From Candidatus Enterousia sp. (lineage in GTDB: Bacteria > Pseudomonadota > Alphaproteobacteria > Rs-D84): a stretch of DNA of 64,000 nucleotides. A program made the position numbers and the translations under genes. The notes under the pieces are model-generated. The model worked only from the letters and a program-made list of their open reading frames with translations. It made no database searches and was not told where the DNA came from. The DNA lies in the NCBI GenBank assembly GCA_045635825.1, contig JAZTWM010000006.1:12265-76264 (forward strand), written 5' to 3'. Below are positions 2,107-37,103 of this stretch, piece after piece (within the stretch, counting starts at the first letter, position 1; each line of letters starts with the position of its first letter).

Positions 2107-2199
2107 AAATAGTATAGTATCATGTTTCTTTCCTAAAATCAACTTGACAATATACGCTTTTGGTCTATGGTTGTTTTGTTGTATAAGCAAGGGGTTAGT

Positions 2200-2509: not shown

Positions 2510-2530
2510 GTTTATATAAAGGGGATAGAG

Positions 2531-2845: not shown

Positions 2846-2865
2846 TATTTGCAGGAGAGAAAGTT

Positions 2866-3144
2866 ATGAATAAATCTATGCAGGAAACAAATAGTGAAGT
2901 TTTGAAGTGTCAGGGGTGTCATGCCGGTTGTGTATGCGGTGCAGAGCCAATTCGTGATCCACGTAATGATAATGCGATTGTTGGTTGGCAACCTAAGGTT
3001 GGTTCTGTGGTTGTGTTTACATATTTGGATTTAGATAATGATATAATGCATTTGATGCCAATGCAGAGTAAGCGTTTGGCGGCATTAAAGGCATTGAATT
3101 TCTTGGCACCGATGTGTGATAAATATAAGCAGAATTGTCGATAA
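2866..3144 (+). CDS. Small cysteine-containing protein of unknown function (family member 1; the paralog is at 27222..27494). N-terminal CxGCxxxC, C-terminal CDKYKQNCR.
   Basis: RBS GGAGAGAAAG upstream; conserved C-terminal motif shared with the 27222..27494 ORF. Confidence 0.5.
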   Translation: MNKSMQETNSEVLKCQGCHAGCVCGAEPIRDPRNDNAIVGWQPKVGSVVVFTYLDLDNDIMHLMPMQSKRLAALKALNFLAPMCDKYKQNCR

Positions 3145-20243: not shown

Positions 20244-20382
20244 AGGCGAGAAGTATATTATATCAAAATAGATGCTATTGCAACAAGAAAAATGTCTTTT
20301 TGTGATAAAATATTTTCATCAGGATGCCTATATATTATTTACTTGCACAGAAAATTGTAATTTTGCTAAGATTTTAGCAGAG

Positions 20383-22935
20383 ATGAAGAGAGTTTTAATT
20401 TTTGCAGTAAATATAATGCTGTGTGTTGGGCTGGCGTATGCCGGGGTTCGTGATGGCACGGCTGTTTTACGTGCAAAAACAGACAAGACGACATCACAAA
20501 GTCGTGTGTCAACTGTTGCTAAGCGTGCTAGTGTGCCGCGTTCGGCTGTATTGACCCCACGCAAGGAATCGCCGTCACGTGGTTCAAATGTTGCGGAAAG
20601 AAAGCAAAATGCGCGTGGTGGTGTGGTTGCACGTGCCGCCAATGTTACTGTGGGGCGTGGTGCATCAGGCGTAGTAGGACGTAATGGTCAAAATCTTCCC
20701 AGAACTTCAATTATAGAGGAAACGCCTGCCTTGATGTCCAGTACACGTACGGGTGCAGAATATGAACGCTGTAAAAATACTTATTTTTCATGTATGGATC
20801 AGTTTTGTATGCTGAAAAATGATGATTATCGTCGTTGTTCTTGTAATGACAGGGTGTTTGCATTAGATGAAGAACGGCAAACCTTACAAAGTGCAGGTGA
20901 AAAAATAACCGTTTTTAATGAGCAGTTGGATGTTGTTGGTATGACTGCAAGTCAGGCAGAGGCGATGCGTAAAGAATCAGAAGGCGAGCAGGCATTGACG
21001 GGTGATAATTCTGCATCTAAGGCATTGTTACAGGCGATTATGAATTCTATTCGTGGAGAGGATGGTACGGTTGCGGGGAAATACGCAGGGTTAAATAGTG
21101 TAAATATTTCATTTGATACGGTGAATGCTTTTGGTATGACAGATATTGGCCAGGCAATTGCTTCTTATAATGGAAATGCCCTGTATAGTGCGGTCTATCC
21201 ACAGTGTCGTGATGCGGTTCGTGCAGATTGTAATGATGCATCATTGCAGCGTGCAATAACTGCATACTTAATGGCGGTAGAACAGGATTGTAATACTGTA
21301 CAGACGGCACTGGAACAAACACGTAAAAAGACCAAGGCGGCAGTTCGTGAAAGCAGTGCAATGTTGGATTTAGCACGTGTTGAAAATCGTCAAAAGCACA
21401 ATTCATCCGATATTACAACATGTGTCAATGATGTTGAAACAGCAATTCTGAGTGAAGAGGTTTGTGGGGCAGGGTATCATAAATGTTTGGATAATGGTGA
21501 ATATATTGATATCTCTACGGGAAAGCCGATTGCCGGTGTTAAAGATTTTTATAAACTGGGGGATATGTTAAAGTTTAGTGACGGGGTTGATGCAGTGCAT
21601 CAAAAGTTGTCTAAGAACTCTAGCAATCGTATGTTTGTTCAGAACTTTGAGTCGCGTGTAAAAATGTTTGCAATGCCTGCATTGGACAAGTGTGTAGAAG
21701 ATGCAGATTTTGTTTGGGCGGAATACTTGGATAGGGCGATGTTGTCTATATATTATGCGCAAAAGTCCAAGGTGGAAGAGATAAAACAGGGCTGTTTTGA
21801 TTATGTGTCATCGTGCTATATGAGTACGGATGATGCGATTTCTGGTGCAACGGATGTGCTGACAGGGGATAGTTCTGTTTTGATTCAGCCTGATAAGATT
21901 GCGTTAAATAATCAGATGTGTACAGATTATATCGAATCTTGCAACAATATGTTCGATAATAATATTATTGCTGATTATATCGAGAATATTACCAATACAG
22001 ATACTTTGACGGCATGTCGTGCGGTTGTAAAGCAATGTTTTGATAAATATGGTGGTATGAATTATGAAAACTTTTATTACCCGTACAGTGGTTTGTTTGC
22101 ACCGGGTTCTGCCGAGGCACCAGATTGGTTTACGTTGTATACTTTGAAGACAGAACAAGATGGGCGTGTTGTGTATGAAACCAATGCGGACGGTTCTTTT
22201 GCGTATAAGTCAGAATGTGCAAAACAGTTGCAGACGATTCCTGCGTGCAGTTCGCCTGAAATTATAGAGCGTGCATTTGGTGGATTAGATTATAATACCA
22301 TGACGGTTGAGTATGGTGTGTTTGTTGCAGATACTGGGTCGTTTGCTGCAGAAGCATGGGCTGAACGTAATTTGCGTTCAACAGGTGTTGCGACCGAGGT
22401 TTATAATCAGATTATTTCTATTTTGTCAACCCAGTGTATGAATTTGCAGGGGCGTTTTGTAGAGGTGCAGTTTATGCCGGATGTGTATGAACAGGATAAT
22501 TATTGTGTGTCCAAGTTTGGGGAAGATGGGGGAAAGTATCAATCTTTCGTTGGCTTGTATGGTATTGGTGATGGCGAGAATATGTGTCCACGTGATTATT
22601 CTTTGGGGGTTGCAACACAATCATGGGGGGCTTGTTTGTGTTGGGAAAATGGTGGCAGGCGTAGTAAATGGGGCAAGGCGGCAAAATGTATGCCTGTGTT
22701 GCCGGTAAATGATAGTGGGGATGATATTGCGTGCAGTTCGGGTACTTTTACTACGGTTACAACTTCATCGGATTTTAGTGAAGATGCATGGTGCGTACAA
22801 GATGTGATTAACAAGGGGTTGAACCAGGTTTGTCCTTTGGGGGGATCTGTGATGCAGGATCTTGATAATTCTAATGGGTATTGTGCAACCAAAGATGGCA
22901 AGGCTTTGTTAAAGGTTCCAGAAGGTGTTAAATAA
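20383..22935 (+). CDS. Large secreted cysteine-rich protein of unknown function (~850 aa). Start MKRVLIFAVNIMLCVGLAYA; the tracked ORF begins at 20272.
   Basis: Signal peptide, basic Arg/Ser-rich N-region, many paired Cys (CSCND, CVEDADF, CYMSTDD...). No recognisable catalytic motif. Confidence 0.55.
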   Translation: MKRVLIFAVNIMLCVGLAYAGVRDGTAVLRAKTDKTTSQSRVSTVAKRASVPRSAVLTPRKESPSRGSNVAERKQNARGGVVARAANVTVGRGASGVVGRNGQNLPRTSIIEETPALMSSTRTGAEYERCKNTYFSCMDQFCMLKNDDYRRCSCNDRVFALDEERQTLQSAGEKITVFNEQLDVVGMTASQAEAMRKESEGEQALTGDNSASKALLQAIMNSIRGEDGTVAGKYAGLNSVNISFDTVNAFGMTDIGQAIASYNGNALYSAVYPQCRDAVRADCNDASLQRAITAYLMAVEQDCNTVQTALEQTRKKTKAAVRESSAMLDLARVENRQKHNSSDITTCVNDVETAILSEEVCGAGYHKCLDNGEYIDISTGKPIAGVKDFYKLGDMLKFSDGVDAVHQKLSKNSSNRMFVQNFESRVKMFAMPALDKCVEDADFVWAEYLDRAMLSIYYAQKSKVEEIKQGCFDYVSSCYMSTDDAISGATDVLTGDSSVLIQPDKIALNNQMCTDYIESCNNMFDNNIIADYIENITNTDTLTACRAVVKQCFDKYGGMNYENFYYPYSGLFAPGSAEAPDWFTLYTLKTEQDGRVVYETNADGSFAYKSECAKQLQTIPACSSPEIIERAFGGLDYNTMTVEYGVFVADTGSFAAEAWAERNLRSTGVATEVYNQIISILSTQCMNLQGRFVEVQFMPDVYEQDNYCVSKFGEDGGKYQSFVGLYGIGDGENMCPRDYSLGVATQSWGACLCWENGGRRSKWGKAAKCMPVLPVNDSGDDIACSSGTFTTVTTSSDFSEDAWCVQDVINKGLNQVCPLGGSVMQDLDNSNGYCATKDGKALLKVPEGVK

Positions 22936-22993: not shown

Positions 22994-24097
22994 TTAAAAC
23001 AGGTATTTGACTGTCAAACTGCCAATCCAACCATCACGTGCGCCGTCACGACGACCAAATGTACCTGTAAAATTAAAGTCTGCGACATTCTTTTCTAGTG
23101 ACAGGCTGTATTCTTTAAAGTTGCCTGTTTCCAGTGTTGATGTTGCGATGTTATTTACGGTTAAGTCGTTGTTAGATGTAGACATTATCGCGTATTTTGC
23201 ATTTATTGATCCAAACCATCCGTTTGCAATATGTTTGATAGCACGTATAGATGGTGCGAATTCAAATATGCTAAGTGCGTTGTTTTTTATTTCATCACCA
23301 TTGGCGGATTGATATTCTTCGCCCCTTATCCAAGTGTATGCCAAGTGTACGCCAGGCTGTATTGTAAATGTTTGATCCAATGTGAAATCGTATGTTGCGT
23401 TTATTGCACCGCCGGCCCAGAAATTAGAGTATTCGTCTGTGCCATCTGTTGTTGTTGCGGAATTGTTCAGTACGCCACCGTTGATGGTTGTGTACAGTCC
23501 CAGGTCGCCAAATACATTGCCGTTATAGATGCCAAAGAAGCCACCTTGTTCATCAATGTTGATGTGCTTGTTCTTTTGTTCACCGTTTATAAATCCTGTA
23601 TATAGTCCCCATTTAGATAGGCCACCAGCAAATTCGGATGTGCCGCCGGCGACGCCGAACATGAATATATCGGCGTCTGAATCTAATCTGTCAAAATTGT
23701 CAAACTTTGCATTGTCGCCCATATGTTGCCAGTTTGCCCACAGACTGTTTAATGTTGCGTCTGGGTTTACTGTGTCGCCACCACTGCGACCAGCTGTGCC
23801 GTCATCGTTGTATTCACCGTATAGTGGGGCACGACCATACATGGGGGCACGACCGTATGTGCTTGCAGGGTTTTCGTTTGCCTGGGCATTTATTGCCTGG
23901 GTTCTTAGTTTTTGGCCGCCCATTGTGCCACGCATAGAACCGGCAAATGATGAAAACATCGTTTGTGTTACAGAATGTTGTATTGCCGCGATATTGTGGG
24001 CAGATATTGTGTTGGCGTACATGTGTGCCGATGCATTTGCGTCGATTGTTCCCAATATGGCAAACAATGATATGTTGAATAATATGTTCTTTTTCAT
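22994..24097 (-). CDS. Outer-membrane beta-barrel protein, autotransporter-beta-domain-like, C-terminal ..VKYLF
   Basis: Signal peptide MKKNILFNISLFAILGTIDANA; alternating amphipathic beta strands; aromatic C-terminal residue (F) typical of OMPs; WANWQHMG..DADIFMFGVAGG resembles an autotransporter translocator. Confidence 0.55.
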   Translation of the reverse strand: MKKNILFNISLFAILGTIDANASAHMYANTISAHNIAAIQHSVTQTMFSSFAGSMRGTMGGQKLRTQAINAQANENPASTYGRAPMYGRAPLYGEYNDDGTAGRSGGDTVNPDATLNSLWANWQHMGDNAKFDNFDRLDSDADIFMFGVAGGTSEFAGGLSKWGLYTGFINGEQKNKHINIDEQGGFFGIYNGNVFGDLGLYTTINGGVLNNSATTTDGTDEYSNFWAGGAINATYDFTLDQTFTIQPGVHLAYTWIRGEEYQSANGDEIKNNALSIFEFAPSIRAIKHIANGWFGSINAKYAIMSTSNNDLTVNNIATSTLETGNFKEYSLSLEKNVADFNFTGTFGRRDGARDGWIGSLTVKYLF

Positions 24098-24242
24098 AAT
24101 TCTACTCTCTCTTGTTGTCATTATGATGTGTTTTATTATAGCATAAAAATCCTATTATTAAAAATGATAAATATAATGGGCGTTACGTTCAAAAATGTTT
24201 TTTATTGTAGTTTTGATAAAATCTGTTATGATATTTATCATT

Positions 24243-25448: not shown

Positions 25449-25735
25449 GCTTGTTGTTGGTGGGTTATGTATAGTTTGCTGGGAAAGGTGGGATGGTTCT
25501 TTGTGGGCTTGGGCGTTAAATGTAATTCGTGTTTGTGTCGTATAGTTTGGGCGTGATCTTGTGTGTTGTAATCGGTAAGAGGTGATGGCGATTTTGATGT
25601 GGTGGTGTGTCGTTTGGGGAGTTTTTTTATGGTGGTGTAATAATTTATATGTGATTGTGCGTTTCGAAAAAAAAGTCCGGAAAACAGCGGGGTGTAGCGA
25701 TTGCTAAAAGGCGTATAATGTATATTATGTATAGT

Positions 25736-26015
25736 TTTGTGTGCTGTGGGCCACTAAACAATACCTAATATGTGTGCTTGTGTTTGTTGTGTTTTGGTGT
25801 GCTGTGGCCCACTAAACGGATACATAATATGTGTGCTGGTGTTTGTTGTGCTTTGGTGTGCTGTAGCCCACTAAACAATACATAATATGTGTGCTGGTGT
25901 TTGTTGTGCTTTAGTGTGTGCTGTGGCCCACTAAACGTATACATGATATGCGTGTGCTTGTGTTTGTTGTGCTGTGGTCCATTAAACGTATACATAATAT
26001 GTGTGTTTGTTGTCT
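25736..26015. repeat. About five tandem copies of a ~59-bp direct repeat (gtgtgctgtggcccactaaac[a/g]atacataatatgtgtgctggtgtttgttgtgctttg) inside a 1 kb ORF-free, C-depleted spacer
   Basis: Seen directly; unit starts near 25741, 25801, 25860, 25920, 25970, the last copy shortened. No unique spacers, so not CRISPR. Confidence 0.7.
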
Positions 26016-26410
26016 TGACCCGTTCCCATTCCTTGGCTATGTTTTTGGGTCGTTATTTGTAAATCTATATTTTTACAAATGCGGTTTAATTGTTTGTAAT
26101 TTGTGGATAGTTTGCTGTAATTGGTTGCGTGTTTGACTGTTGTGTAATATTGTGTTCTTTTGGTGGTTTGGACTTAAAAATGATGATTTTTGTGCCCTAT
26201 TTTGCTCGTTTTTTTGAAAAAATGGCGGATTTCTGCGGTTTTTTAGTGTTTTATGGCCGTTAGGGGTGATTTTTTGATGCTTTTTGTGGTGGGGTTGGGG
26301 TGTTTTTTATAGTGTTGTGGGGTATGGTGTGTGGTACCCTGCTTTGTTGTTAATGTAAAACTTTAACGTGTTACAATTGTTATTTGTTTGTAGCTAATAA
26401 TGTTTAAGAT

Positions 26411-26441
26411 AAAAAGCACGCCGATTGGCGTGCTTTTTATC
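26411..26441. terminator. Bidirectional terminator hairpin (aaaagcacgccgattggcgtgctttt)
   Basis: Perfect stem, A/T flanks; directly 3' of minus-strand gene 26437..26754. Confidence 0.55.
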
Positions 26442-26754
26442 GTTGTTTTTGTAATTTGATTGCCTTGCGGTGGTATTTTTGTGCTTGTTTTTTATATGTT
26501 TGTGCACTGTTGTGTGCCATATGTCCCAGGTAGAACATTAATAGTGCCAGCCCCAGTTGGGTGTAATTTGGATCGCTGTTATCATTGATTAGAGATAGTA
26601 TGTTTGCAATCAATAATGTAGCTGCAGAACAGTTTGCAACCACGCATGCAATTTTAGCATGGTTTACCTGACGCATTGTGTTTGCGTGCAATGTGTCATA
26701 TAATTCGATTTTATCTGGGTGATGATTGTTTGTTTTGGTGTGTACAGACGACAT
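26437..26754 (-). CDS. Small hypothetical membrane protein (two predicted TM helices, basic tail)
   Basis: ORF with two hydrophobic segments; last gene of the co-directional minus-strand array. Confidence 0.4.
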   Translation of the reverse strand: MSSVHTKTNNHHPDKIELYDTLHANTMRQVNHAKIACVVANCSAATLLIANILSLINDNSDPNYTQLGLALLMFYLGHMAHNSAQTYKKQAQKYHRKAIKLQKQR

Positions 26755-26769
26755 AATGTGTATTCCTTT

Positions 26770-27231
26770 TTATTTTTGTTTGTTGTATTTTGATGGAAAC
26801 AAAACCTTGCCCAAGGTATTTTGCATATATTGATCTGTGCATTTGCCTGTCGCCAATTGGCAAAAACAATGCATACGACGTATTGGTCGTGTCGTACCTG
26901 CGATGGAAAAGTCTGGATCGCATTTGCAAATCTGGATATCGCATACGTTATTCAGGTTCAGTGTTGAATGGTCGCTGCGATTGCCACACGATGGGCCGAT
27001 GTGGTAAATAGTTGTTGCCGAAATGCCATGATTGACTAAACAAGAGTCTGGCTTTGGGTGGCGGTTGTCAAGTATCGCCTGTAGCAATTTTTCCGCTTTG
27101 AATAATGTGATTTTATCCAGTTTGTGCAGTTTCAGTAATTTTTGCAATTCTGGACAGCGGGTTACGATACGCAATTTGGTTTGTGTTAATTTTTCGTTCA
27201 TGCGTGTACCAATATTATAAGTTAACGGCAT
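26770..27231 (-). CDS. Hypothetical protein (~150 aa; start probably MPLTYN or MNEKL, because the tracked N-terminus overlaps the next gene)
   Basis: ORF; contains an HSTL motif and several Cys; no confident family assignment. Confidence 0.35.
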   Translation of the reverse strand: MPLTYNIGTRMNEKLTQTKLRIVTRCPELQKLLKLHKLDKITLFKAEKLLQAILDNRHPKPDSCLVNHGISATTIYHIGPSCGNRSDHSTLNLNNVCDIQICKCDPDFSIAGTTRPIRRMHCFCQLATGKCTDQYMQNTLGKVLFPSKYNKQK

Positions 27232-27494
27232 TTTTGTTTGTAGTTGTCGCACAATGTTGCGATTTGAGAGGCTAAACGTTGCCCTGCTTGGAATGTTGGG
27301 CATGTGTACGGAAAGATTAATTGTACTTTGCCTTCGGCATCTACGTAGTATTTGATTGTTTTTGTTTGGATTTTTGGATAAATAATGCCGTCTGTGTCGC
27401 GTATTGCGTAAATATAGCAGGCACGTGGACAACCGTCGCAACGCATTTCTGGTAGTTTTGCTTCGTGTGGCATTTGGTGGAATTGTGTGAACAT
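27222..27494 (-). CDS. Small cysteine-containing protein, family member 2 (paralog of 2866..3144). Carries CDGCPRAC and C-terminal CDNYKQKCR.
   Basis: Colinear similarity with 2866..3144, including an identical-type C-terminal motif and an N-terminal CxGCxxxC. Confidence 0.5.
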   Translation of the reverse strand: MFTQFHQMPHEAKLPEMRCDGCPRACYIYAIRDTDGIIYPKIQTKTIKYYVDAEGKVQLIFPYTCPTFQAGQRLASQIATLCDNYKQKCR

Positions 27495-27616
27495 TTTTAT
27501 ATCCTTTGATTCTGTGTTTTTTATTTCAAGCGGATAATAGACAAAAGAAAATCACTTGTCAAGTGATGCCCCTGCCCGCTTGCTTGTAAAAAATCCCGCA
27601 GTTGCGGGATTTTTTA

Positions 27617-27934
27617 TTATCTTAGTCCTTTGGCACGACAACAGGCCGATGCGGCGGATTTCCAATCAGAGTATTGCTTTGATGGGGCGCGTAAATCACG
27701 CCATGGCTGCCAACCGCTGCAACGTTTTTTACTGCCTGTGCCAGTGCATTTTGCATAGCGACGCAATGTGCAGGTTTGTGCCGATGTTTTGCCTGTATCG
27801 GTTGTGCATTTTACAACAACATTTTGGTTTTTTGCATCATTCTTTCCCATTTCTTTGGATGACATAACCTGATATGCCCCAGCGCTGCAAATGGTGGATA
27901 TAACTAGCAGTGTTGTAAATAAATACTTCTTCAT
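27617..27934 (-). CDS. Small secreted cysteine-rich protein (signal peptide + 8 Cys)
   Basis: MKKYLFTTLLVISTICSAGA signal peptide; KCTTDTGKTSAQTCTL..KCTGTGSKKRCSG. Confidence 0.5.
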   Translation of the reverse strand: MKKYLFTTLLVISTICSAGAYQVMSSKEMGKNDAKNQNVVVKCTTDTGKTSAQTCTLRRYAKCTGTGSKKRCSGWQPWRDLRAPSKQYSDWKSAASACCRAKGLR

Positions 27935-27999
27935 TGGTTATCCCCTTTTGATACTGATATTATAAATCTTTGCGTTTCGAAAAACAATAAGAATAAATG

Positions 28000-29142
28000 T
28001 CAACGTGTTAATGGGTCTGTTGTTGGTTCGTGGCAACCGTTTTCACGCGTTAGTTTGACACGATTCATCCAGCCTTTTAAGAACTTTTTATTATTTCCAC
28101 GCTTGGATACCTGGACAAAATATTGTTGCATGTCGTCAAGATAATCGTTGTGCAAATCACCGTTATAGGTTTCAGCGGCACGTGCAACTTCATCGTCAAT
28201 TTTACTGCGTTCTGGTATTTTTAATACACGACAAAAATGTTTGATTCCTGTGACAGGGCCGGATGCCCAGCCAAAGGTGAAAACATCGCCACGAACATAG
28301 TCTGGTAATTTTTCAATGCCATGTTGACGATAGTATTTGCGATTAGCAATATCTTCGGCACCGGCACGTGTTAGATTGCGAACGTTAACCTCTGGATTGT
28401 TGTTTTGTGATATGCCATAGCATGTGTAACCGCCAGAATCGTCTTTGTCATGACCACAATCGCCTTCGGCACGAAATGTTGTAATCATAATTTTTTCAAA
28501 CGCAGGGTCTGATTGTGCATATTTACCGCTGGTTAAGATTTTGTTCAAGAAATGCTGACTGCGTTGTGGTGGTGTACATGGGCCATTGCGGACAGTTTTA
28601 TTTGCGATTACAGGCCGTCCAAAGGTATCGGTACCCACCGCACGTCCATTTGTGGTTGCTGTGGGTTGTGTTTGTGCCGTTGTGGGATATTGCGACTGTG
28701 TGGTTTGTTGCGTTTGCTGTGCCGTTGTTTGTTGTTCTGGGGTGGTTTGACGGTCGCCGATAGCCACGACTTCTTCGAATGCACCGGGTTTTTGCACGCA
28801 GTATTCATCGTCTAATGGATATTTGTCGCAGTATTGTTCGTGTGTCATTTTATGATAGTCTTGTTTTCGTTCCAGTTCTGCACGACTAATCATTCGGTCC
28901 AAATATGCTTCTTCGGATTCAACGTCAATTGTGTGAAATGCACTGGCATTGGCATAAGGGGCATACCCAGTTGATGCGTTGCTCGTCCGTTTGTTAAAAG
29001 AATAATCCATAGATGTTTTTGGTGCATTTTCTACACGTAATAATGATTTGGACAATCCGTATGCGGATGTGCATACGCCAGTCATGATGAATAATAATAA
29101 AAAGTGGCGTGTAAAATTATTCATTGGTTGTCCAAGGTTCAT
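28000..29142 (-). CDS. Secreted GH108-family muramidase-like protein with a peptidoglycan-binding (PG_binding_3-like) domain, Q/T-rich linker and the N-terminal DYSFNKR..TGYAPYAN module
   Basis: EGDCGHDKDDSGGYTCYGIS resembles the GH108 catalytic N-terminus (EGGYvnDpxDpGGxTkyGIt); signal peptide; TQQTTQSQYPTTAQTQP linker. Confidence 0.55.
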   Translation of the reverse strand: MNLGQPMNNFTRHFLLLFIMTGVCTSAYGLSKSLLRVENAPKTSMDYSFNKRTSNASTGYAPYANASAFHTIDVESEEAYLDRMISRAELERKQDYHKMTHEQYCDKYPLDDEYCVQKPGAFEEVVAIGDRQTTPEQQTTAQQTQQTTQSQYPTTAQTQPTATTNGRAVGTDTFGRPVIANKTVRNGPCTPPQRSQHFLNKILTSGKYAQSDPAFEKIMITTFRAEGDCGHDKDDSGGYTCYGISQNNNPEVNVRNLTRAGAEDIANRKYYRQHGIEKLPDYVRGDVFTFGWASGPVTGIKHFCRVLKIPERSKIDDEVARAAETYNGDLHNDYLDDMQQYFVQVSKRGNNKKFLKGWMNRVKLTRENGCHEPTTDPLTR

Positions 29143-30832
29143 CGTTCATTATTAGATAATATAGTGCAGGATTGTCAGAACCGGGGTTTCTTAGAATTGG
29201 GCGAACAACATATATGTCTACGTTGCAAGGGGTGTTGCCACCCTGCTCTTCTTTCAGGTCTTCGTGAAACTTTGATGCAAAATCCATTGCCTGCAAGTAT
29301 GCAGCATCATCGTCATTATCGCTGATTGAATCACCCATCCACATCAGCCACATACCATGGTTTACAACGTTTTCTTGACCTTCTAGGTCGTCGGCAGATA
29401 GTAATAATAATGGTGCAAATTCAACGCCACTGGTAAAGTCGCCTGTTTCAGTTTCGGTCCAGTCGTACATGCCACCAATAAACTTGATTGCACCGTATGC
29501 CAGACCACCGGCGGCCTCTAATTTTCCAAGCATAGCGGCATTTTTCATAGTGGAATGGAATAACCAATCTTTGGCTTGGTTGGCAAAACCGCTGGAACGG
29601 CCCATGCGTGCGGCCTTGGTAATAAGTTTGTTGCCTGTCATGGCGGATTTTGTTGCCCGGGCGGCACGTGCAACGATGTTGCCACGTTGTGCCAATTTTA
29701 ATGAACGCAATCCACGACGATAGGCATTTAATTCAGAAAATGTTTTTGTTGCGTCGCGATATTTTTTTACGTCGTTGGTTGCGTCTAGTGTTTTTACAGT
29801 GTCTTTGGCTTTGTCCAAATCCTTGGTCAAATCTGCAATTTTTGCGGCGTCTTTGGTCTTGTCTAGTTTATTGATTTTATTTGTTAGGTCTGCAACGTCA
29901 CGTGTGGCACGTGTCCATTTTATAACGTCATCAGATTTGCTGAGTGTTTTTATAGTACCGGTCAGACCTTTTAATGCACGTGATGCACGTGCGGCCTTGG
30001 TTGCCCCGGTTATGACAATGCCACCACCCATAGTTACAACGGTTATTACGATATCCAGTGCAATTTCCAGATATGTTATCCATTGCAGGTTTACATCACC
30101 TGCAATGTAATAGTCGTTAGAGTCGTCTTCCATATTGACGGTTCTTTCACTCATTACTTTGTTTATGATTAAATCGTCATCTGCCAATGCGGAACGTGCA
30201 GTGCATTTACCGCCATTGTCGTCTGCATTTGGATACAGTTCGTCAATATGGTCACGAATGTATTCAATTGCCAGGGTGTTATTTTTATCAGGCCCCACAA
30301 ATTCGTCCAATGCCCCATGTTCGACAATCATGATTGCGTACCATGCGGGTTCTGTATTTGTCCAAATCGCGGCATCATCTGGATCGCCCAGGCGTGGGTT
30401 TGGATTGTCGGTTGGCAGTCCGCGTTTTTCAGACAGCATTAATCGCTGTTTTAATAATTTTGGCTGTGTTTCATAGTTTACGATAATTTCACGTCCATTT
30501 GGAAATGTGTACATGATGGGCATGAACTTTATTGTTTCGCCTTCGGGAGTGTTAGCGATTTCAGGGCATGCCAGTACCGGACCTAGAACATCTTTTTGTG
30601 CAAATGTTTGATAAATCCATTGCTGAATTACGGTTTCGTGTTCCGTTTCGGCCGCAGGATCGGCGGTGCGTGCCAATGCGTCTGCAAATACTTTGGTTGC
30701 ACATGCCGTATCGTCGGGGCCACGTGTTGGGATTGTTGTGTCTATCAGGCGTGTGTTGGCCCCGTATACGGTGTGTGGTATAACCGCAGGGAACAATAAT
30801 AGGCAAAAGAATATAAAAATGTTTTTTAGCAT
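29117..30832 (-). CDS. Secreted hypothetical protein (571 aa) with a central Gly-rich hydrophobic segment and a K/D/T-rich coiled-coil-like repeat region
   Basis: Signal peptide MLKNIFIFFCLLLFPAVIPHTVYG; VITVVTMGGGIVITGATKAA; repeated KxLxKxxD motifs; start overlaps the stop of the upstream gene. Confidence 0.5.
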   Translation of the reverse strand: MLKNIFIFFCLLLFPAVIPHTVYGANTRLIDTTIPTRGPDDTACATKVFADALARTADPAAETEHETVIQQWIYQTFAQKDVLGPVLACPEIANTPEGETIKFMPIMYTFPNGREIIVNYETQPKLLKQRLMLSEKRGLPTDNPNPRLGDPDDAAIWTNTEPAWYAIMIVEHGALDEFVGPDKNNTLAIEYIRDHIDELYPNADDNGGKCTARSALADDDLIINKVMSERTVNMEDDSNDYYIAGDVNLQWITYLEIALDIVITVVTMGGGIVITGATKAARASRALKGLTGTIKTLSKSDDVIKWTRATRDVADLTNKINKLDKTKDAAKIADLTKDLDKAKDTVKTLDATNDVKKYRDATKTFSELNAYRRGLRSLKLAQRGNIVARAARATKSAMTGNKLITKAARMGRSSGFANQAKDWLFHSTMKNAAMLGKLEAAGGLAYGAIKFIGGMYDWTETETGDFTSGVEFAPLLLLSADDLEGQENVVNHGMWLMWMGDSISDNDDDAAYLQAMDFASKFHEDLKEEQGGNTPCNVDIYVVRPILRNPGSDNPALYYLIMNDEPWTTNE

Positions 30833-30899
30833 TATTATTCCCTGTAGTGTTTTTATTTGGTTGTGTATTGTGCCGCCTGTGCCCCCATAACGGTATCTG

Positions 30900-32732
30900 C
30901 TAGTTTACCTTTTTATTGTTGTTTGGGTTACTGTCGGTTTTGTCGTTAGGATCCGATGTTTTAAACAGTTTTTCGGTCCATTTTTTGATGTCGAATTGTT
31001 TAGAGTTTTTTGCAGCATCGTCTGCGGCATCTATGTCTTTTGCGGATTTGCCAACAGCGGCACCGGCGCGTTCTGCGAACTTTTTTACAGTACCAAGTTT
31101 TTTGCTGGCCTCTTCCATATTTTGTGCCCCTTTTACGGCGTCTAGTACTTCGGTATCTTCGTTGTTACCTTTGCCACCAGTGCCACATTCTTCGTCCATT
31201 TCCGCCAGTTGTGCTTCGATTTTTGCGATTGCATATTCATACATATCGGGTCCCAGATCAGGTTCCAGTGGTGCAGGTTCCGGCTGTGGTGTTGTTTGTT
31301 GTGCGGTTGGTGCGGGTGTTGTTTCAGGGATTATTTCCGCACAATAATCGGCCATTAACTGATAGCCATCGATGCAACCCCATTCGATACATTTTTTTTC
31401 TTCGTTCAATCCAAATATGTATATGGGCAGGTTTTTTTCTTCTTCGTTTGGACCTTTCCCATCACAATATTTTGGGGTGCATTTTTTTGTTTTTGAATCA
31501 TAATTAAATGATTCACCGCAGTCCCATTTCCAACATACTTTTGATGTATCTGGGACGTATCGAACGCTATCACCTAGGCCATTTGGTGGTGCAGATGTGC
31601 CAGAACACCAGCGTGTTGTACAACTTTCTGACCATGCGTCATCACTGACTAGGTCTTTAAAGAATCCAAGGATCCCGCCACTAGATTTTGAACGGCCACC
31701 CACTTGGCATTGGCGAACCATGGCCATTGCACCACCACCTTTTTTCTGACAGAACATATAATCGCCAATGCCACGTTTTACGTCGCCGGTGGTTGTATTG
31801 CAACACGTTTGTTTGTTTGTAACAGGGTCTGTCAAACAGTCGGTTTCCGAGAACATTTGCCATCCAACAGTGGCCGCACCAACAACTGCACCTGCACCAA
31901 GAGCGATCCATCCAGCTGGGCCAGATAGTGCTAAAACGGATGCAACCCCCATGCCGACCATTGCACCGCCTGCGGTTGACATTAGAAGGTCTTTGCCTGT
32001 GCGGGCACCTTCGCCCATATTAGCATCCCACCACATTTTAACACCGCCTACTACTGATAGTACGCCTAGACCTTTGCTTACAACTTTGCCCGCTGTACCT
32101 TTTAATATGTTTAATTTGCTATTTGTCTTGATTGGGTCTGGTTTTGGTGGTGGCATGTTGTTAAAGCCTTTGCCAGATACGAATTTTCCGTTCATATTTT
32201 TATAATTGACTATGCCACTTTTATGGACTTCACGATAGTATTGTTTGCCGTCTGTGTGGGTGAAAAGTTCGCGTGTAAAAACATTACCTTTGCTGCTGGT
32301 AATTGTGCCTGTTGGCAGTGGTTTTGGCGCCTTTGCCGCGGCGGTTGTTGTCTTGGCGGCTGTGCTGCTTGTCGAAGTTGATGCTGGTGTGGATGGTGAC
32401 GCAGTGGGGGTTGCAGCTGGTGCACCGTTTTTAGAGAAGTAAATAGATCCATTTTTTTTAGTAACGCTTATACCCTGTTTTTTTAGATTTCTTTGTAAGG
32501 CATCGTATTCTCCTGGGGTAAGTTGGTCAGTGGTATAGGCGGGCATACCCCCACCTTTTGTTTGCCAGTCGCTTAATATGCTGTCAAATGACTGGCCACC
32601 AAAACCCAATTTTGCTTTTGCTGCATCGAAGACGGGGGTGGCGGCATAAGATAATGATACTGTGCATATTAATAATGAAAATGCAACAAGGAATGTTTTT
32701 ATTTTTTTTAGAAAAAAAGTTTTTATAGACAT
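30900..32732 (-). CDS. Secreted hypothetical protein (~610 aa) with a Thr/Ala/Ser/Pro-rich linker, a glycine-zipper membrane segment and a Cys-rich C-terminal half
   Basis: Signal peptide; AATPTASPSTPASTSTSSTAAKTTTAAAKAPKP; GAMVGMGVASVLALSGPAGWIALGAGAVVGAATVG glycine zipper; CxxC/WxC-rich region. Confidence 0.5.
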   Translation of the reverse strand: MSIKTFFLKKIKTFLVAFSLLICTVSLSYAATPVFDAAKAKLGFGGQSFDSILSDWQTKGGGMPAYTTDQLTPGEYDALQRNLKKQGISVTKKNGSIYFSKNGAPAATPTASPSTPASTSTSSTAAKTTTAAAKAPKPLPTGTITSSKGNVFTRELFTHTDGKQYYREVHKSGIVNYKNMNGKFVSGKGFNNMPPPKPDPIKTNSKLNILKGTAGKVVSKGLGVLSVVGGVKMWWDANMGEGARTGKDLLMSTAGGAMVGMGVASVLALSGPAGWIALGAGAVVGAATVGWQMFSETDCLTDPVTNKQTCCNTTTGDVKRGIGDYMFCQKKGGGAMAMVRQCQVGGRSKSSGGILGFFKDLVSDDAWSESCTTRWCSGTSAPPNGLGDSVRYVPDTSKVCWKWDCGESFNYDSKTKKCTPKYCDGKGPNEEEKNLPIYIFGLNEEKKCIEWGCIDGYQLMADYCAEIIPETTPAPTAQQTTPQPEPAPLEPDLGPDMYEYAIAKIEAQLAEMDEECGTGGKGNNEDTEVLDAVKGAQNMEEASKKLGTVKKFAERAGAAVGKSAKDIDAADDAAKNSKQFDIKKWTEKLFKTSDPNDKTDSNPNNNKKVN

Positions 32733-32734
32733 AA

Positions 32735-33628
32735 TCAATAACTTCCTGTGGTTTGGCATTGTTCAATTGGTGTGCCGGCGGCACGACATGCCTTTAATTT
32801 CGCCAGATCTTCACGTAATGTTTGGGTGGTTGTACCGTATTTGGCTTCGCACCATTCACGACGTTTGGCAGCAATGCGAATGCGACGGTCCAGATACGCC
32901 TCTTTGGATTCGATTGTGATGGTTTTAAATGCACTGGTGCCGGCGTATGGTTTATATCCTTCGGTGGCGTTGGCCTTGCGTTCTTCAAAGGAAAAGTCAG
33001 CCGCCACTTTTGGCATTTCATCTGTCGCAGTTGGTAATTTGTTTGCACCCGATTGTTCGCGCAGGGCCTCTAACTCTGCCCGGCGGGCGGCCATGTCTGC
33101 CTTCCAATTATCTTGTTGCTTGGGTTGGGTGGACGGAAGTGTTGATACAATCGCCTGGGTTGGTGTGTTTGTCTTTATGGATGTGTCTGGGAATGCAATA
33201 CGGGCATTTTTATCAAACCCAGTATTTTGTTTTACATAATTGTCAAATGCACCATCTAAGTATCCGGCACAAGATGTGGCATAGTTTGCCCCAGGCATTT
33301 GTGTCAATTGCATCATTAATGCAGGACGTATATCCTTTAATTTTGTGTCACGACAATTGTTACGCATTCCACATTGCTGGGCAATCAATTGGGCGGCAAT
33401 TTGGTTGCAGTCGCCAGATTTAGCGTCTGGACCATCGACGTATACCGGTGTTGGCATACGCTGATTATATGGCGAGTTTGGGTTCCAATATGGATTTGAT
33501 GAATAACTTTGTACGTTTTGAATGTTTCCATAATTGGAAAATGCAGATGGTGATGCATTGCATAAACCAGTATATGTGATAACACATATCATAAATAAAT
33601 GAAGTATATACTTGTGCTTAATTCTCAT
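32735..33628 (-). CDS. Secreted hypothetical protein carrying the DFSFEERKANATEGYKPYAG module near its C-terminus
   Basis: Signal peptide MRIKHKYILHLFMICVITYTGLCNA; the shared module with 18841 and 28000 proteins; Cys pairs. Confidence 0.5.
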   Translation of the reverse strand: MRIKHKYILHLFMICVITYTGLCNASPSAFSNYGNIQNVQSYSSNPYWNPNSPYNQRMPTPVYVDGPDAKSGDCNQIAAQLIAQQCGMRNNCRDTKLKDIRPALMMQLTQMPGANYATSCAGYLDGAFDNYVKQNTGFDKNARIAFPDTSIKTNTPTQAIVSTLPSTQPKQQDNWKADMAARRAELEALREQSGANKLPTATDEMPKVAADFSFEERKANATEGYKPYAGTSAFKTITIESKEAYLDRRIRIAAKRREWCEAKYGTTTQTLREDLAKLKACRAAGTPIEQCQTTGSY

Positions 33629-33649
33629 TTCCAGGTCCCTGTAATGTGA

Positions 33650-34117
33650 TTATAGCAAAAACAGACCTGTCAGGAAAGATAAAAATCCCCCAATTAGAAA
33701 AAATGGTGCAAATGGTATATATTTTTGTTGATTAAATCGTGCCCATATTGCCCCAATCAGGCATGCGAATATTAGTGCCAGTCCCAATCCATTTGTCCCC
33801 AGCCATAATCCCCCAACACCAATTAACTTTATATCGCCCATACCAATTGGTGGGTATGGAATGTTTTTATTTTTGTGCAGTTTGTCAAATAATATGCCAA
33901 TAATTGTTGCCATAATGTATCCGAATGTTGCACCAATGACAGCATTTGATATGTCGGTTGGAAAACTGTAAAAAGTGGTTAATATCAGCCCAATCAGCAT
34001 AAGTGGAAACAGGTATGCGTCTGGGATTATACGACGACGCAGGTCGGCCCTGGATATCATTATGGCCAGCCAAATTGCAGTGGCAATTAATAGGCTAAAA
34101 AATATATTAAAAATCAT
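33650..34117 (-). CDS. Prepilin peptidase-like (A24 family, CpaA/TadV-type) small membrane protein
   Basis: 155 aa, 4-5 TM helices, Asp in the ADLRRRIIPD context and a second Asp in a later loop, as in CpaA-type peptidases. Confidence 0.5.
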   Translation of the reverse strand: MIFNIFFSLLIATAIWLAIMISRADLRRRIIPDAYLFPLMLIGLILTTFYSFPTDISNAVIGATFGYIMATIIGILFDKLHKNKNIPYPPIGMGDIKLIGVGGLWLGTNGLGLALIFACLIGAIWARFNQQKYIPFAPFFLIGGFLSFLTGLFLL

Positions 34118-34190
34118 GTTTTCCCCCTTGCCTTTCGAATCGGATGTGTGCTATGATATATCAGTAGTATTATAACAAGGATTCTGTAAT

Positions 34191-34778
34191 ATGAGCAAGG
34201 GTTGGGATAACACAGCACTAAAAAAATTAAAAGCATTGACTGGCAAGGGGTTGTCTACGTCCGAAATTGGTAAGCGGCTGGGGATGTCTAAGAATGCGAT
34301 TGTGGGTAAATTAAATCGTTTGGGCTGGAATGCCAAGGCGGGTGGTGCCAGTGTCGCCGGGGCAAGTGAAAAGAAAACCGCTGCAGTGTCAAAGAAGACC
34401 GAAGAAGTTGTGGAAAAACGTGCAACAAAAAAAGTAGCCACCAAGGCTGTAAAAGAAGAAAAAAAAGTTGTTGTGAAAAAAGTGGCGGCCAAGGCCGAAA
34501 CAAAGCCTGTAAAAGCCAAGGTAGAACCTAAGAAGGCAGAAGAAAAAACATCTGCACGTTCCACAAAGGTAAGCGCCAAGGATTTGGCAGTGCATCAGCG
34601 GATTGTTCAGCATTCTTTGGAAATGGCAAACTTGAAACCAAATCAATGTCGTTGGCCGATTGGTGATCCTGATTCTGAACATTTTCATTTTTGTGGCGAA
34701 ACAGTGTTTGTGGGTAAACCATATTGCTATGAGCATTGTAAGCAGGCGTATCAGTTTACACCGCCCAAGAAAAAATAG
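34191..34778 (+). CDS. gcrA: Cell-cycle regulator GcrA
   Basis: N-terminal W..LK.L...GLS.SEI..RLG.S.NA..GK..RLG and C-terminal CRWPIGDP....FCG.....PYC..H are GcrA hallmarks; a K/A/E-rich linker lies between them. Confidence 0.75.
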   Translation: MSKGWDNTALKKLKALTGKGLSTSEIGKRLGMSKNAIVGKLNRLGWNAKAGGASVAGASEKKTAAVSKKTEEVVEKRATKKVATKAVKEEKKVVVKKVAAKAETKPVKAKVEPKKAEEKTSARSTKVSAKDLAVHQRIVQHSLEMANLKPNQCRWPIGDPDSEHFHFCGETVFVGKPYCYEHCKQAYQFTPPKKK

Positions 34779-34802: not shown

Positions 34803-37103
34803 ATGTCGATAGAGAGAGAGAATCTTAAGCAATCGTTAAAAGTTGTCGATTATGATATCGCAGGTAATCCTTTGCGTGCATACCAGGACGTGGATGGGCG
34901 TTTGGTGTTTGTCTTGGATTTGTTGATTGATGATATTAAGCCAAATGTGTTATTGGTAATTAGTCCTGAGGATAATCGCAAGTGGGATGATATAATTGCT
35001 AATGATTGGGGTGTGGATTTGGAAACTGTGCGTCCCAAGAAGGATAATAAATATCAAAAGTTAGATATAGAATATGCAGGGTTAGATAAATACTCTGATT
35101 TAATTCAGGCGTATTTGGGTAGAGGTGATGTTTCGGCCAGGTTGGCGGATTTGCAGGCGTTTCGTGTCAGTGTTGCAAAACATGTTGCAACAGAAAGGTT
35201 GGCTGCTGCTGAAAAGTTGGCAGGTCAGGCACGTGAAACGATTGAAAAAACAAACGATACAATTGCAACCCTGCAAGAAAAACTAAAAGGGTGGCGTGTA
35301 AAACTGCAGGAATATAAGTCGCAGATTGGGCGGGCACCTGGAAAACAGGTTGCGTCAAAGATTTTGCGGGCGGAATCGCAGATTGATGCGATTGGCGAGA
35401 AAATGGTTCGGGCAAAAAAAAGATTGGCCAGTGCCAAGAATCGCCTGGTAAATGCAGAAGATGATGCGGATATCGCACGTAACATATTAACCAGAATTCA
35501 GCAGATTGCGGGTCATGATGGACAAGATGCAATCGTAACAGATTTAACAACAATAAATAAAACAGGGGCAGAAAAAATGGCAGATAATGATATTAAACCA
35601 ATCTTGGATCAGGATCCAAATATATTAGATGAAGATATTGCGTTTAAGCCTATTGTATTTGATACGTCTGTGGCGCCGGTTGTGCCGTCTGCACCATCTG
35701 TGACGTCAAATGTGCCAAAGTTTAAGCCATTTGGTAATGATGTAGAAAAAACAGAAGAAGTGGTTTTTGCACCGGTTGTGGCGGATGTGCCAGTTGCACC
35801 GGCTGTGCCGGAAACACCTGTTGTGCCAGAGACGTTGGCCGCACCTGTTGTGTTTGATGTGCCAGAAGTTCAAGAGGTTCAAGCGCCTGTGATTGAGCCT
35901 GTTTCAGTTCCTGTTGCCCAAGAGGTGCATATGCCAGCACCATTGGTGGAACAGATGCCTGTGCCGGTTTTGGATAGTATTACAGCGGTTGGACCAGTGC
36001 TAGATCAGGCGGATTCAGAAGTGTTTGGTGGTGATGTGTTGTCACCAGAACTGTCAACATCAGTGGTGTCAGAAGTGCCGATGTCACCTGTGTTAGAGGC
36101 ACCAACTTTATCGCCAGTTGTGTCAGATGTGCCGGTGGCACCTGTGGTCCCTGCCCATGCGATGCCTGTTGTTAATGCACCAGCGTCAAGTGCACCTGTG
36201 GCACCGATGCCAGAGATATCAGCATCGCCGGTTGATGGCCCAGGAAGACCTGTGTCCCCTATTGCGGCACCGGTGGTTGCGGTTTCGGCATCAACCCCAC
36301 GTAAGCCCACCACATTATATTATGTGTTGTTGATGGTGTTGATTGCGTTGTCTATATTCACGTTGTGGATTTATCAAAAGTCTTCGAACCAGAATCTGCC
36401 GGAATTGGGTGCTTCTGTTCAGGCAGAAACACAAGAAGAAGTTGTTGTGCAGGATGGTCAGGATGCCAATTCACCATTCTTGGGTGGTGCAGAAGATGTG
36501 AAAGCCGAAAAGGTGTCTGAGCCAGTTCAGGTTGTTATGCCAGCCCCAGAAGTAAAACCTGTGGAAACAGAAAGTGTTGAGCTTGTCATGGATATTGTGC
36601 CAGAAGAAGTTCCTGCAACCCCAGCCGAGGCAGTTACTATTTCGCCATCTGTAGAGGTTGTGTCTGTGCCAGCAACCCCTGCACAAGAAGATGAGGTTAT
36701 AGAGCCACAACCTGTGGAAGAAAATCCTTTCTTGTCAGATGATACTGTGGTTGCACCTGCACAGAAGTCCATTGCTGAAATTATTGCCAGCAAGCCTGTG
36801 TATAATGTTGCACGTGACGATAAGAAATTTGTTGCAGATCCTGAATATGAAACAAGTGAAGAGGATGAAGAAACAGTAGAAGAAGTTGTAGAGAAAGAAG
36901 TACCAGTGGTCGATGTTGCGGAACCTGTTGTTACGGGTGTGACAGATGAAGTTGTGACAGAGGTTGTGCAGGATACATGTGCAGATGGAAACTTGCCAGA
37001 TGAGAATGGGTGTTGTTCTGGTGAAGAATCTGTTGATTTAGGTGGTGGTGAATTGGCGTGTTGTGTCGTCGGTACAGACGAATGTTTCCCACCAATGAAA
37101 TAA
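34803..37103 (+). CDS. Large hypothetical protein (766 aa): coiled-coil N-domain, P/V-rich (PVVP/PAVP) repeats, one TM, acidic E/V-rich C-terminal region with a terminal Cys cluster
   Basis: ORF with strong low-complexity periodicity; TM TTLYYVLLMVLIALSIFTLWIY; CADGNLPDENGCCSGEE..CCVVGTDEC at the end. Confidence 0.5.
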   Translation: MSIERENLKQSLKVVDYDIAGNPLRAYQDVDGRLVFVLDLLIDDIKPNVLLVISPEDNRKWDDIIANDWGVDLETVRPKKDNKYQKLDIEYAGLDKYSDLIQAYLGRGDVSARLADLQAFRVSVAKHVATERLAAAEKLAGQARETIEKTNDTIATLQEKLKGWRVKLQEYKSQIGRAPGKQVASKILRAESQIDAIGEKMVRAKKRLASAKNRLVNAEDDADIARNILTRIQQIAGHDGQDAIVTDLTTINKTGAEKMADNDIKPILDQDPNILDEDIAFKPIVFDTSVAPVVPSAPSVTSNVPKFKPFGNDVEKTEEVVFAPVVADVPVAPAVPETPVVPETLAAPVVFDVPEVQEVQAPVIEPVSVPVAQEVHMPAPLVEQMPVPVLDSITAVGPVLDQADSEVFGGDVLSPELSTSVVSEVPMSPVLEAPTLSPVVSDVPVAPVVPAHAMPVVNAPASSAPVAPMPEISASPVDGPGRPVSPIAAPVVAVSASTPRKPTTLYYVLLMVLIALSIFTLWIYQKSSNQNLPELGASVQAETQEEVVVQDGQDANSPFLGGAEDVKAEKVSEPVQVVMPAPEVKPVETESVELVMDIVPEEVPATPAEAVTISPSVEVVSVPATPAQEDEVIEPQPVEENPFLSDDTVVAPAQKSIAEIIASKPVYNVARDDKKFVADPEYETSEEDEETVEEVVEKEVPVVDVAEPVVTGVTDEVVTEVVQDTCADGNLPDENGCCSGEESVDLGGGELACCVVGTDECFPPMK

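Follow-up and report, generated by a model that had tools for sequence, protein, structure and literature searches.

A conserved six-gene envelope operon with a prepilin-type peptidase and a divergent gcrA partner in Candidatus Enterousia

Prepilin-type peptidases and specialised peptidoglycan hydrolases are typical accessories of trans-envelope machines. VirB1, EtgA, and PleA are dedicated wall hydrolases of such machines, and proteins of the SagA/ZliS/TtsA type combine a GH108 domain with PG_binding_3. We analysed 64 kb from a genome of Candidatus Enterousia (order Rs-D84 in GTDB; genome about 900 kb), in which a six-gene operon, g1–g6, holds one enzyme of each kind. This whole stretch is called the window below, and coordinates are positions in it.

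The operon resembles several described systems in part. Its first gene, g1, is like the TadV/CpaA peptidases (MEROPS A24) of Tad/Flp loci in its Pfam family, its small size, its two aspartate motifs, and its place as the first gene beside envelope genes, but the Flp pilin, TadE/F, TadA/CpaF, TadB/C, and RcpA/CpaC of those loci were not found in the operon or the window. The fifth gene, g5, is like the hydrolases of envelope machines and the GH108 secretion activators, with a GH108 domain and a weak PG_binding_3 match inside an envelope operon. It differs from these in partner proteins that belong to no recognised secretion system, in export by Sec rather than through a holin, and in a lineage-specific N-terminal module followed by a long linker. 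A third likeness is to hydrolase scaffolds (FtsEX–EnvC–amidase; LytM factors, e.g. DipM; bactofilin–LmdC M23), whose logic is the same: the scaffold spans the membrane and has its coiled coil in the cytoplasm, and a non-catalytic domain recruits the hydrolases. Here too an M23 enzyme carries the module, and an M23–bactofilin pair lies nearby in relatives. However, we found no sequence or fold similarity to these scaffolds, there is no ABC ATPase, and the recruiting module is new.

Searches for the hallmark parts of known machines among the operon products were negative. Pfam, NCBIfam, and PHROG showed no assembly ATPase (TadA/CpaF/PilB/GspE), platform protein, or secretin of Tad, type IV pilus, or type II secretion systems. 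Pfam and NCBIfam showed no VirB4, VirB11, or VirD4 ATPase and no VirB6–B10 core of type IV secretion, and Pfam and PHROG no holin family of a holin–endolysin or type 10 system. Against a prophage origin, the flanks hold mscL, aroK, gcrA, thyA, and tig, with no phage structural or integration genes, and BFVD gave no fold match for g2. Judged from its sequence, the locus as a whole appears to lie outside the known kinds of system, and its function is inferred from context.

Members of Rs-D84 are common in human and livestock guts, and their genomes of about 0.75–1.0 Mb lack flagella, respiratory chains, standard transporters, and much of central metabolism (PMC12306168). Their route of nutrient uptake and partner contact is not known, and a partner-dependent lifestyle via unidentified membrane proteins has been proposed; the same pangenome survey reported type IV pili for another reduced lineage and none for Rs-D84 (PMC12306168).

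The real unit is a six-gene operon on the minus strand, running from 34117 to 27617 and conserved in every related genome examined. Its parts are as follows.

33650–34117, minus strand: g1, A24 peptidase of TadV/CpaA type (155 aa; PF01478)
32735–33628, minus strand: g2, exported protein (297 aa)
30900–32759, minus strand: g3, exported protein at position 3 (619 aa)
29117–30832, minus strand: g4, anchor protein of the locus (571 aa)
28000–29142, minus strand: g5, exported GH108 muramidase, as predicted (380 aa; PF05838)
27617–27934, minus strand: g6, exported basic Cys protein, last gene of the operon (105 aa)
27587–27616, minus strand: intrinsic terminator of the operon, hairpin plus U-run (AAAAAAUCCCGCAACUGCGGGAUUUUUU)

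The layout allows co-transcription of the six genes, whose junctions are short or overlap and which share one terminator behind g6. In the window, g2/g3 and g4/g5 overlap by about 25 nt; in relatives the median intra-operon gap is 16 nt, with overlaps at 27% of junctions. The terminator has a predicted dG of −17.7 kcal/mol (z −5.3), and none of 200 shuffled sequences was equally stable. A hairpin plus T-run follows g6 in 58 of 67 loci, with stem sequences that differ among loci.

Our comparison set comprised 85 related loci, analysed by tblastn and open reading frame (ORF) calling against the window. When g4 was scanned against a single genome for each species, relatives turned up in 253 genomes; the top 80 of these carry the label Candidatus Enterousia or are gut, rumen, or faecal Alphaproteobacteria, and one is closed, at 958,618 bp. 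Gene order is constant in all related loci that include upstream sequence: gcrA–p766 and, divergently, A24–g2–position-3 gene–g4–(GH108 in about 25 loci)–g6. The A24 gene heads the operon in every locus that covers this region, and the six loci without it begin inside the operon. It lies 20–35 nt from g2 in relatives, across an order whose proteins have diverged to 50–60% identity. Identity to relatives is 51–70% for g4, 63–82% for g6, and 56–91% for GcrA. Since the g1–g6 arrangement recurs in about 80 species-level genomes, it is far beyond chance.

From their sequences, all six core products are predicted to be membrane or Sec-exported proteins. Hydropathy gives a basic N-terminus followed by a hydrophobic segment in g2, g3, g4, g5, and g6, and AXA-type cleavage motifs are kept in orthologues (e.g. 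ANA/YQ in g6, with the slash at the cut). Family searches of the operon products used Pfam, NCBIfam, PHROG, and PADLOC, and fold searches used PDB profiles, Foldseek, and BFVD. For g2, g3, g4, and g6 there was no match above threshold in any of the four family collections and none to a PDB profile. Four core families and the docking module described below are without detectable relatives, and only g1 and g5 belong to known enzyme families.

An earlier, sequence-only reading of this DNA had described nine co-directional minus-strand genes with short or overlapping junctions, and the ORF calls agree with it on that point. It had also named a prepilin-peptidase-like gene at the head and a GH108 muramidase, which the PF01478 and PF05838 matches above gathering scores bear out, and a 105-aa Cys-rich product, which is g6 with its six invariant Cys. 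Its three large low-complexity proteins reduce to one: g3 has true low-complexity linkers, whereas g2 and g4 are of globular or membrane type and well conserved. The suggestion of a lineage-specific envelope, effector, or cell-wall locus survives as a lineage-specific envelope locus with a link to the wall; the effector part suits the core poorly, as g4 and g6 are conserved about as well as GcrA. The most informative context, which that reading missed, is the divergent pairing with gcrA through a GcrA/CcrM-type site, together with a module common to two peptidoglycan hydrolases.

That module, of about 60 aa, has the consensus FPxTxADLSFxERxxNxAAGYxPYKxxSAYxxIxIESEExY and has three copies in the window: one in g2 (aa 194–258, nt 32855–33049), one in g5 (aa 29–93, nt 28864–29058), and one in an enzyme 8 kb from the operon.

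18841–19926, plus strand: M23 endopeptidase with module (PF01551, E 7.9e-24; HEGID and HLH motifs)

In this M23 enzyme the module follows directly after the signal peptide, at about nt 18871–19131. The copies are 40–50% identical and match one another with E-values of 1e-11 to 1e-15 (g5 against g2, 1e-13 to 1e-15; M23, 2.6e-11 and 7.5e-12). By its sequence features g5 is a predicted GH108 muramidase, consisting of a signal peptide, the module, a Thr/Gln-rich linker, and the GH108 domain at aa 222–295. It scores 52.6 bits against PF05838 (cut-off 21.2; E 6.7e-14), and its sequence RAEGDCGHDKDDSGGYTCYGI carries the GH108 N-terminal motif, which is defined as E-G...D-x-G-G-x-T-x-x-G-I. Its match to PG_binding_3 (PF09374) is weak (E 0.006). 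The only PHROG match at the locus is that of g5 to the endolysin family phrog_315 (E 1.4e-28), and against the holin-associated muramidase model NF040573 it reaches 26 bits, with a cut-off of 240. Between module and catalytic domain, g5 and the M23 enzyme both have a long low-complexity linker. We mapped the module architectures over the 85 loci and saw none there beyond these, given with their counts.

g2: 67
signal peptide–module–GH108: 20
g2 N-part–module–GH108: 5
g2 N-part–module–g4-like body (aa 164–564): 8
g2 N-part–module–g3-like Cys domain: 2
signal peptide–module–M23: 5

Such fusions count as Rosetta-stone evidence for joint action of g2, g4, g3, and the muramidase. Because the module sits on two hydrolases with different bond specificities, it is more plausibly a targeting or docking element than a part of catalysis. 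The GH108 gene is the sole insert between g4 and g6 in relatives (about 25 loci). A search of 5.8 billion proteins with the module profile returned five fragments only, the query being too short for the word index. As a separate observation, some relatives (L085:19985–21566; ends of L002 and L003) have a gene for a 425-aa M23 peptidase followed by a bactofilin gene, about 8–10 kb downstream of the operon and next to lpxA/lpxB. Such a pair resembles the bactofilin–M23 morphogenesis pair that has reportedly been described in other Alphaproteobacteria.

The link to gcrA lies in the region upstream of the operon.

34118–34190: divergent control region between gcrA (plus) and the A24 gene (minus), 73 bp, containing CGATTCG at 34136–34142
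34191–34778, plus strand: gcrA (PF07750, E 2.5e-28)
34803–37103, plus strand: p766, the downstream partner of gcrA, without a family match

GcrA prefers a GANTC (CcrM) site in a YGAKTCK context (Haakonsen 2015, PMC4647560), and GcrA-dependent sites in Caulobacter cluster near −20 and +2 to +30, within 40 bp of the start site (PMC4647560). The window spacer carries a GANTC of YGAKTCK context 25 nt upstream of the A24 start codon, and also an extended −10-like element, TGTTATAAT, in the A24 direction. There is one GANTC at the same position in all 78 of 78 loci. CGAWTCG, either as CGATTCG or as its palindromic partner CGAATCG, is present in each of the 69 distinct spacers, 25–26 nt before the A24 ATG. 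Mean column identity over these 69 versions is 0.88, with proteins about 60% identical between the same genomes; the gcrA/A24 spacer is conserved far beyond expectation for such protein divergence. The gcrA–p766 pair is the divergent neighbour of the operon in about 75–76 loci.

By consensus promoter search, CGAWTCG falls at about −27 of a predicted TTGCCT-18-TAnnAT promoter that reads towards gcrA; for the A24 direction, it falls at about 0 to +13 of the best predicted promoter. With these predicted starts, the region would be like Caulobacter GcrA/CcrM promoters in having a GANTC in YGAKTCK context at most 40 bp away, near both preferred windows, and unlike them in that a single site would serve a divergent pair that includes gcrA itself. 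No CcrM-like gene was found in the 64-kb window. Cell-cycle timing of the operon by GcrA/CcrM is what the observed conservation of the site would suggest. In the neighbouring p766, an N-terminal coiled coil is followed by a Pro/Val-rich region, one transmembrane (TM) segment, an acidic region, and a Cys-rich C-terminus.

The anchor protein g4 has 754 matches in a large protein collection, all from uncultured Alphaproteobacteria at 51–98% identity and none with Pfam domains. An exhaustive profile search found only 139 members of the family among 1.84 billion cluster representatives, and for this reason the family appears confined to the lineage. No relative was found among the 2.9 million viral contigs of IMG/VR, and Pfam, NCBIfam, PHROG, PDB profiles, and Foldseek gave no family or fold match; the AlphaFold model is poor (pLDDT 53). 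Pfam searches with all members of the g4, g2, and g3 alignments returned coiled-coil or chance matches only, among them a chance-level match to PF07996 (E 0.023) in one of 23 g4 homologues. The predicted layout of g4 is a signal peptide, an acidic N-domain with conserved Cys, a TM segment at 252–275 with invariant E256 and D260 inside it, a basic coiled coil, a weakly hydrophobic segment at 432–455, and an acidic C-domain. The coiled coil has a net charge of +21; its length varies among homologues, and in some species it is duplicated. The C-domain is extremely conserved (PLLLLSADD, NHGMWLMW, DDDAAYLQAMDFA), and alignments of orthologues place both g4 and g6 under strong purifying selection.

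In g2, a signal peptide is followed by an invariant N-terminal motif, PFSxYGxIQNVQNYSSNPFW, which is probably extended in conformation, a four-Cys helical domain at aa 70–135, the module, and a long C-terminal helix. Its AF2 model has a mean pLDDT of 74, rising to 90–96 over aa 70–135 and 242–284, and it matched nothing in Pfam, NCBIfam, PHROG, PDB, Foldseek, or BFVD. Profile–profile comparison showed no relationship between g2 and g4. The basic, exported g6, with six invariant Cys, is the best-conserved product of the operon (63–82% identity) and has no Pfam or PDB match.

Position 3, between g2 and g4, is occupied by at least four families among the relatives.

g3-like family: 32 loci
family B: 18 loci
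family C: 11 loci
g4 paralogue: 4 free-standing, 8 fused to g2

We considered whether every gene at this position might be a diverged g4 paralogue, but only one of the four families is; profile–profile comparison finds g3, family B, and family C each unrelated to g4. Each family combines a signal peptide and Cys residues with a Gly-rich hydrophobic segment, and conservation within families is good, at 48–62% mean column identity. The gene at position 3 is the sole one of the core that behaves like a variable cassette. The window protein g3 has a signal peptide that ends SYA/A (cut at the slash) and lacks a Cys at +1. Behind it come a small N-domain, a linker rich in Pro, Thr, and Ala, a Gly-rich hydrophobic hairpin at aa ~229–303, a Cys-rich domain (about 13 conserved Cys), and an acidic tail; no PDB profile matches g3.

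Like the glycine-zipper outer membrane proteins (SlyB/Pcp, the Rickettsia 17-kDa antigen; Gly-zipper_Omp/YMGG/OmpA), g3 and the other position-3 families have a Gly-rich hairpin of GxxxG type. They differ in that g3 has no lipobox, is far larger, and has a Cys-rich domain of unrecognised fold, and in that all matches to the glycine-zipper Pfam families are below gathering score, the best with E 0.005–0.015 in one to three of 21 g3 relatives and none in g3 of the window. The glycine-zipper label of the sequence-only reading is backed by such sub-threshold matches in 3 of 21 relatives and is not confirmed. Ten position-3 proteins of relatives were scanned with Pfam, and no secretion or pilus ATPase, platform, or secretin family was found in them. 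One of the ten, a family-B protein (L054:2980–4467), has a sub-threshold match to the SseC type III translocator family (E 7e-4; 19.7 bits against a cut-off of 30.2) that covers the region of its Gly-rich hydrophobic segment.

The peptidase g1 scores 56.9 bits against PF01478 (cut-off 26.5; E 3.1e-15) over profile positions 3–103 of 104, and has five hydrophobic segments and no methyltransferase domain as in PilD. Two aspartates, D25 in ADLRRRIIPD and D95 in G-M-[GA]-D95-I-K-L (G-M-G-D-I-K-L in the window), are invariant in 60 g1 orthologues. We take these to be the catalytic positions of the A24 family, the first after TM1 and the second in the GxGD-type motif. Prepilin (class III) leaders are short and basic, with Gly at −1, a hydrophobic helix, and usually Glu at +5. 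A regex scan of the window for pilin, Flp-type, or class III leaders, over its 3696 ORFs with 30 aa or more, gave noise only, and the orthologues of g2, g3, g4, and g6 carry ordinary AXA-type Sec signals. The leader scan and the Sec signals agree with the earlier view that no product is a recognisable pilin, so that A24 has no canonical substrate among them. A phmmer search of PDB with g1 returned hydrophobic noise only.

Two candidate substrates were considered. The Flp-like ORF at 2144–2509 (GAQMVEY) was rejected, being one of three paralogous two-TM (2TM) proteins with a layout like that of g9, a product encoded beyond the operon. A cryptic cleavage site at the cytoplasmic edge of segment 432–455 of g4, where G433 is nearly invariant, lacks a Glu at +5, and the segment is doubtful as a TM helix; we regard this site as speculation. 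A search of the literature on orphan prepilin peptidases found nothing relevant. The catalytic residues of g1 are intact, with no canonical substrate in view in the 64-kb window. Because the active site is intact, some substrate should exist; the enzyme may mature a non-pilin membrane protein of the complex or serve substrates encoded elsewhere.

We tentatively favour reading the operon as a lineage-specific cell-envelope complex, timed by the cell cycle, that docks peptidoglycan hydrolases, because its products belong to the envelope, hydrolases are tied to it by the module, g4 is scaffold-like, and the locus is wired to gcrA. In such a complex g4 would be a transmembrane scaffold spanning the inner membrane, with its conserved N-domain on the periplasmic side and its basic coiled coil on the cytoplasmic side, and g2 would be its periplasmic adaptor. 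The module would be the docking element that tethers the hydrolases, via their long flexible linkers, to the g2/g4/g6 assembly. The protein at position 3, whether g3 or one of its alternatives, would form a variable outer component anchored by a glycine zipper. Binding of GcrA at the methylated CGAWTCG would gate transcription of the operon.

Several points weigh against such a complex. The function of the core rests on context, g2, g3, g4, and g6 being without a recognised fold or family; a housekeeping complex for wall remodelling has no obvious need for an A24 protease; and four unrelated families at position 3 are not expected of it. Only about 25 of about 80 loci have GH108 within the operon. 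The C-domain of g4 may be either cytoplasmic or periplasmic. The promoter positions are consensus predictions, and the conserved GANTC could be part of just the gcrA promoter.

The main rival, in our view somewhat less likely, is that the operon instead encodes a surface or trans-envelope apparatus for interaction with partner cells (attachment, uptake, or secretion), with g4, g6, and A24 as its base. The position-3 protein would then face outward, and the muramidase would open the wall for assembly or breach that of the partner. Such an apparatus would suit the transporter-poor Rs-D84 (about 0.9 Mb), proposed to depend on partners via unidentified membrane proteins (PMC12306168). A prepilin-type peptidase and a specialised peptidoglycan hydrolase, each of a kind that commonly accompanies trans-envelope machines, share one operon, and position 3 looks like an exchangeable cassette of four unrelated exported Cys families with Gly-rich hydrophobic segments, one member of which has the sub-threshold SseC match (E 7e-4). 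Yet no ATPase, secretin, pilin, or other machine part was recognised in the operon, and the presence of the module on the M23 endopeptidase 8 kb away points to general wall metabolism. Nor does the good conservation within position-3 families (48–62%) resemble that of arms-race antigens, and the gcrA pairing points to regulation by the cell cycle rather than by contact.

A less probable alternative is that the A24 peptidase has no functional relation to its neighbours, being a relic or working TadV/CpaA for Flp pilins or pseudopilins encoded elsewhere that shares an operon through the gene packing of a small genome. The AXA-type Sec signals of g2–g6, with no class III signal peptide among them, would fit this, as would an intact active site, from which some substrate is expected, and the inspected part is 64 kb of a genome of about 900 kb. 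On the other hand, the gene is always the first, 20–35 nt from g2, across a diverged order (50–60% identity), and no pilin-like ORF was found in the window; that type IV pili are not reported for Rs-D84 in the pangenome survey (PMC12306168) argues indirectly in the same direction. We regard as equally doubtful a bolder combination, in which the locus would be the missing trans-envelope machine of Rs-D84: a machine of an undescribed kind, made of four protein families not found elsewhere and switched on once per cycle via GcrA, with an orphan TadV-like intramembrane protease that matures a non-pilin membrane protein and a new docking module that recruits hydrolases.

The sequence-only reading had placed three further genes in the same array, which together with their signals are as follows.

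27534–27562, minus strand: sigma-70-like promoter of g7–g9, TTGACA-17-TATTAT (11/12)
27222–27494, minus strand: g7 (90 aa; CxxC...CDNYKQKCR)
26770–27201, minus strand: g8, Cys-rich (143 aa from an ATG inside the listed 223-aa ORF)
26437–26754, minus strand: g9, SLATT-like 2TM protein (105 aa)
26408–26441, minus strand: palindromic terminator after g9 (15 pairs)

One nine-gene transcription unit of fast-evolving secreted effectors is very improbable. All nine genes are co-directional with short spacers, and g3 is variable, but the terminator after g6 (dG −17.7) and the promoter before g7 part them into two units, g7–g9 are missing from related loci, and g4 and g6 are under strong purifying selection. 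The two tests set beforehand gave split answers. Synteny in relatives was very strong for g1–g6 and zero for g7–g9 over the 85 loci, and the test for internal promoters and terminators found both between g6 and g7. Because of these signals and the absence of g7–g9 from related loci, we treat the DNA as two units rather than a nine-gene array, with g7–g8–g9 a separate, strain-level accessory unit unrelated to the core. The claim that all products except the first and the last two have a signal peptide holds for g2–g6 and fails for g7, which has no N-terminal hydrophobic segment.

By tblastn neither g7 nor g9 has a homologue in the 85 loci, and the SLATT matches of g9 are below threshold in Pfam, NCBIfam, and PADLOC. 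A paralogue of g7 lies at 2866–3144, within a paralogous cluster on the plus strand (2144–3144) of two 2TM proteins and the g7-like protein, which is likewise missing from the 85 loci. The g7–g9 unit is possibly a small conflict or toxin-like module. An Rfam Thr_leader match at 26364–26442 (plus strand; 28.5 bits against 55) coincides with the g9 terminator hairpin and is almost certainly an artefact.

That the locus is a phage-derived lysis or type-10-like secretion cassette, or a prophage remnant, is scarcely credible: g5 does match the endolysin PHROG and, weakly, the holin-associated muramidase model, but it carries a Sec signal peptide of its own, neither a holin nor a phage gene was found nearby, the locus sits among housekeeping genes in conserved chromosomal synteny, g4 is without a relative in the viral contigs, and GH108 is missing from the operon in most species.

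Being in every related genome examined, seemingly confined to the lineage, conserved about as well as GcrA, and composed almost wholly of proteins that lack relatives, the operon is a prime candidate for lineage-defining envelope biology in Rs-D84, which is abundant in the gut but uncultured. Experiments in the native organism are not yet possible. The operon would also be a clean natural case of a prepilin-type peptidase retained for a role without a recognisable pilus, would provide a new targeting module for peptidoglycan hydrolases, and would be evidence that the GcrA/CcrM methylation logic of Caulobacter survives base for base in a reduced-genome lineage that is very distant. If these are just co-transcribed envelope proteins, the practical yield shrinks to four new protein families plus a corrected map of the operon.

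The flanks of the locus are ordinary chromosomal genes, with aroK (shikimate kinase) and mscL on one side and gcrA, thyA, tig (trigger factor), rpsI/rplM, and argS on the other. A tandem repeat at 25734–25978, with units of 58–59 bp in 4.1 copies and 86–88% matches, lies between mscL and g9, where genes are sparse. Synteny breaks at this repeat, and relatives have 4.5–9 kb of other genes between g6 and mscL. A 375-aa protein at 22994–24121 (minus strand) has a signal peptide and a sub-threshold match to an autotransporter beta-domain (E 2.8e-4), and is kept beside aroK/mscL in three related loci. GC skew is strongly positive (0.2–0.35) over most of the window and falls to about 0 at 28–34 kb and 38–46 kb, where genes are on the minus strand; the drop is an effect of gene strand and not a replication feature. 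Finally, p887 (20272–22935, plus strand) is an exported protein of 887 aa with 34 Cys and no family match. It recurs at 50–61% identity in 51 related loci, usually less than 10 kb from the operon, as another lineage-specific Cys-rich envelope protein.

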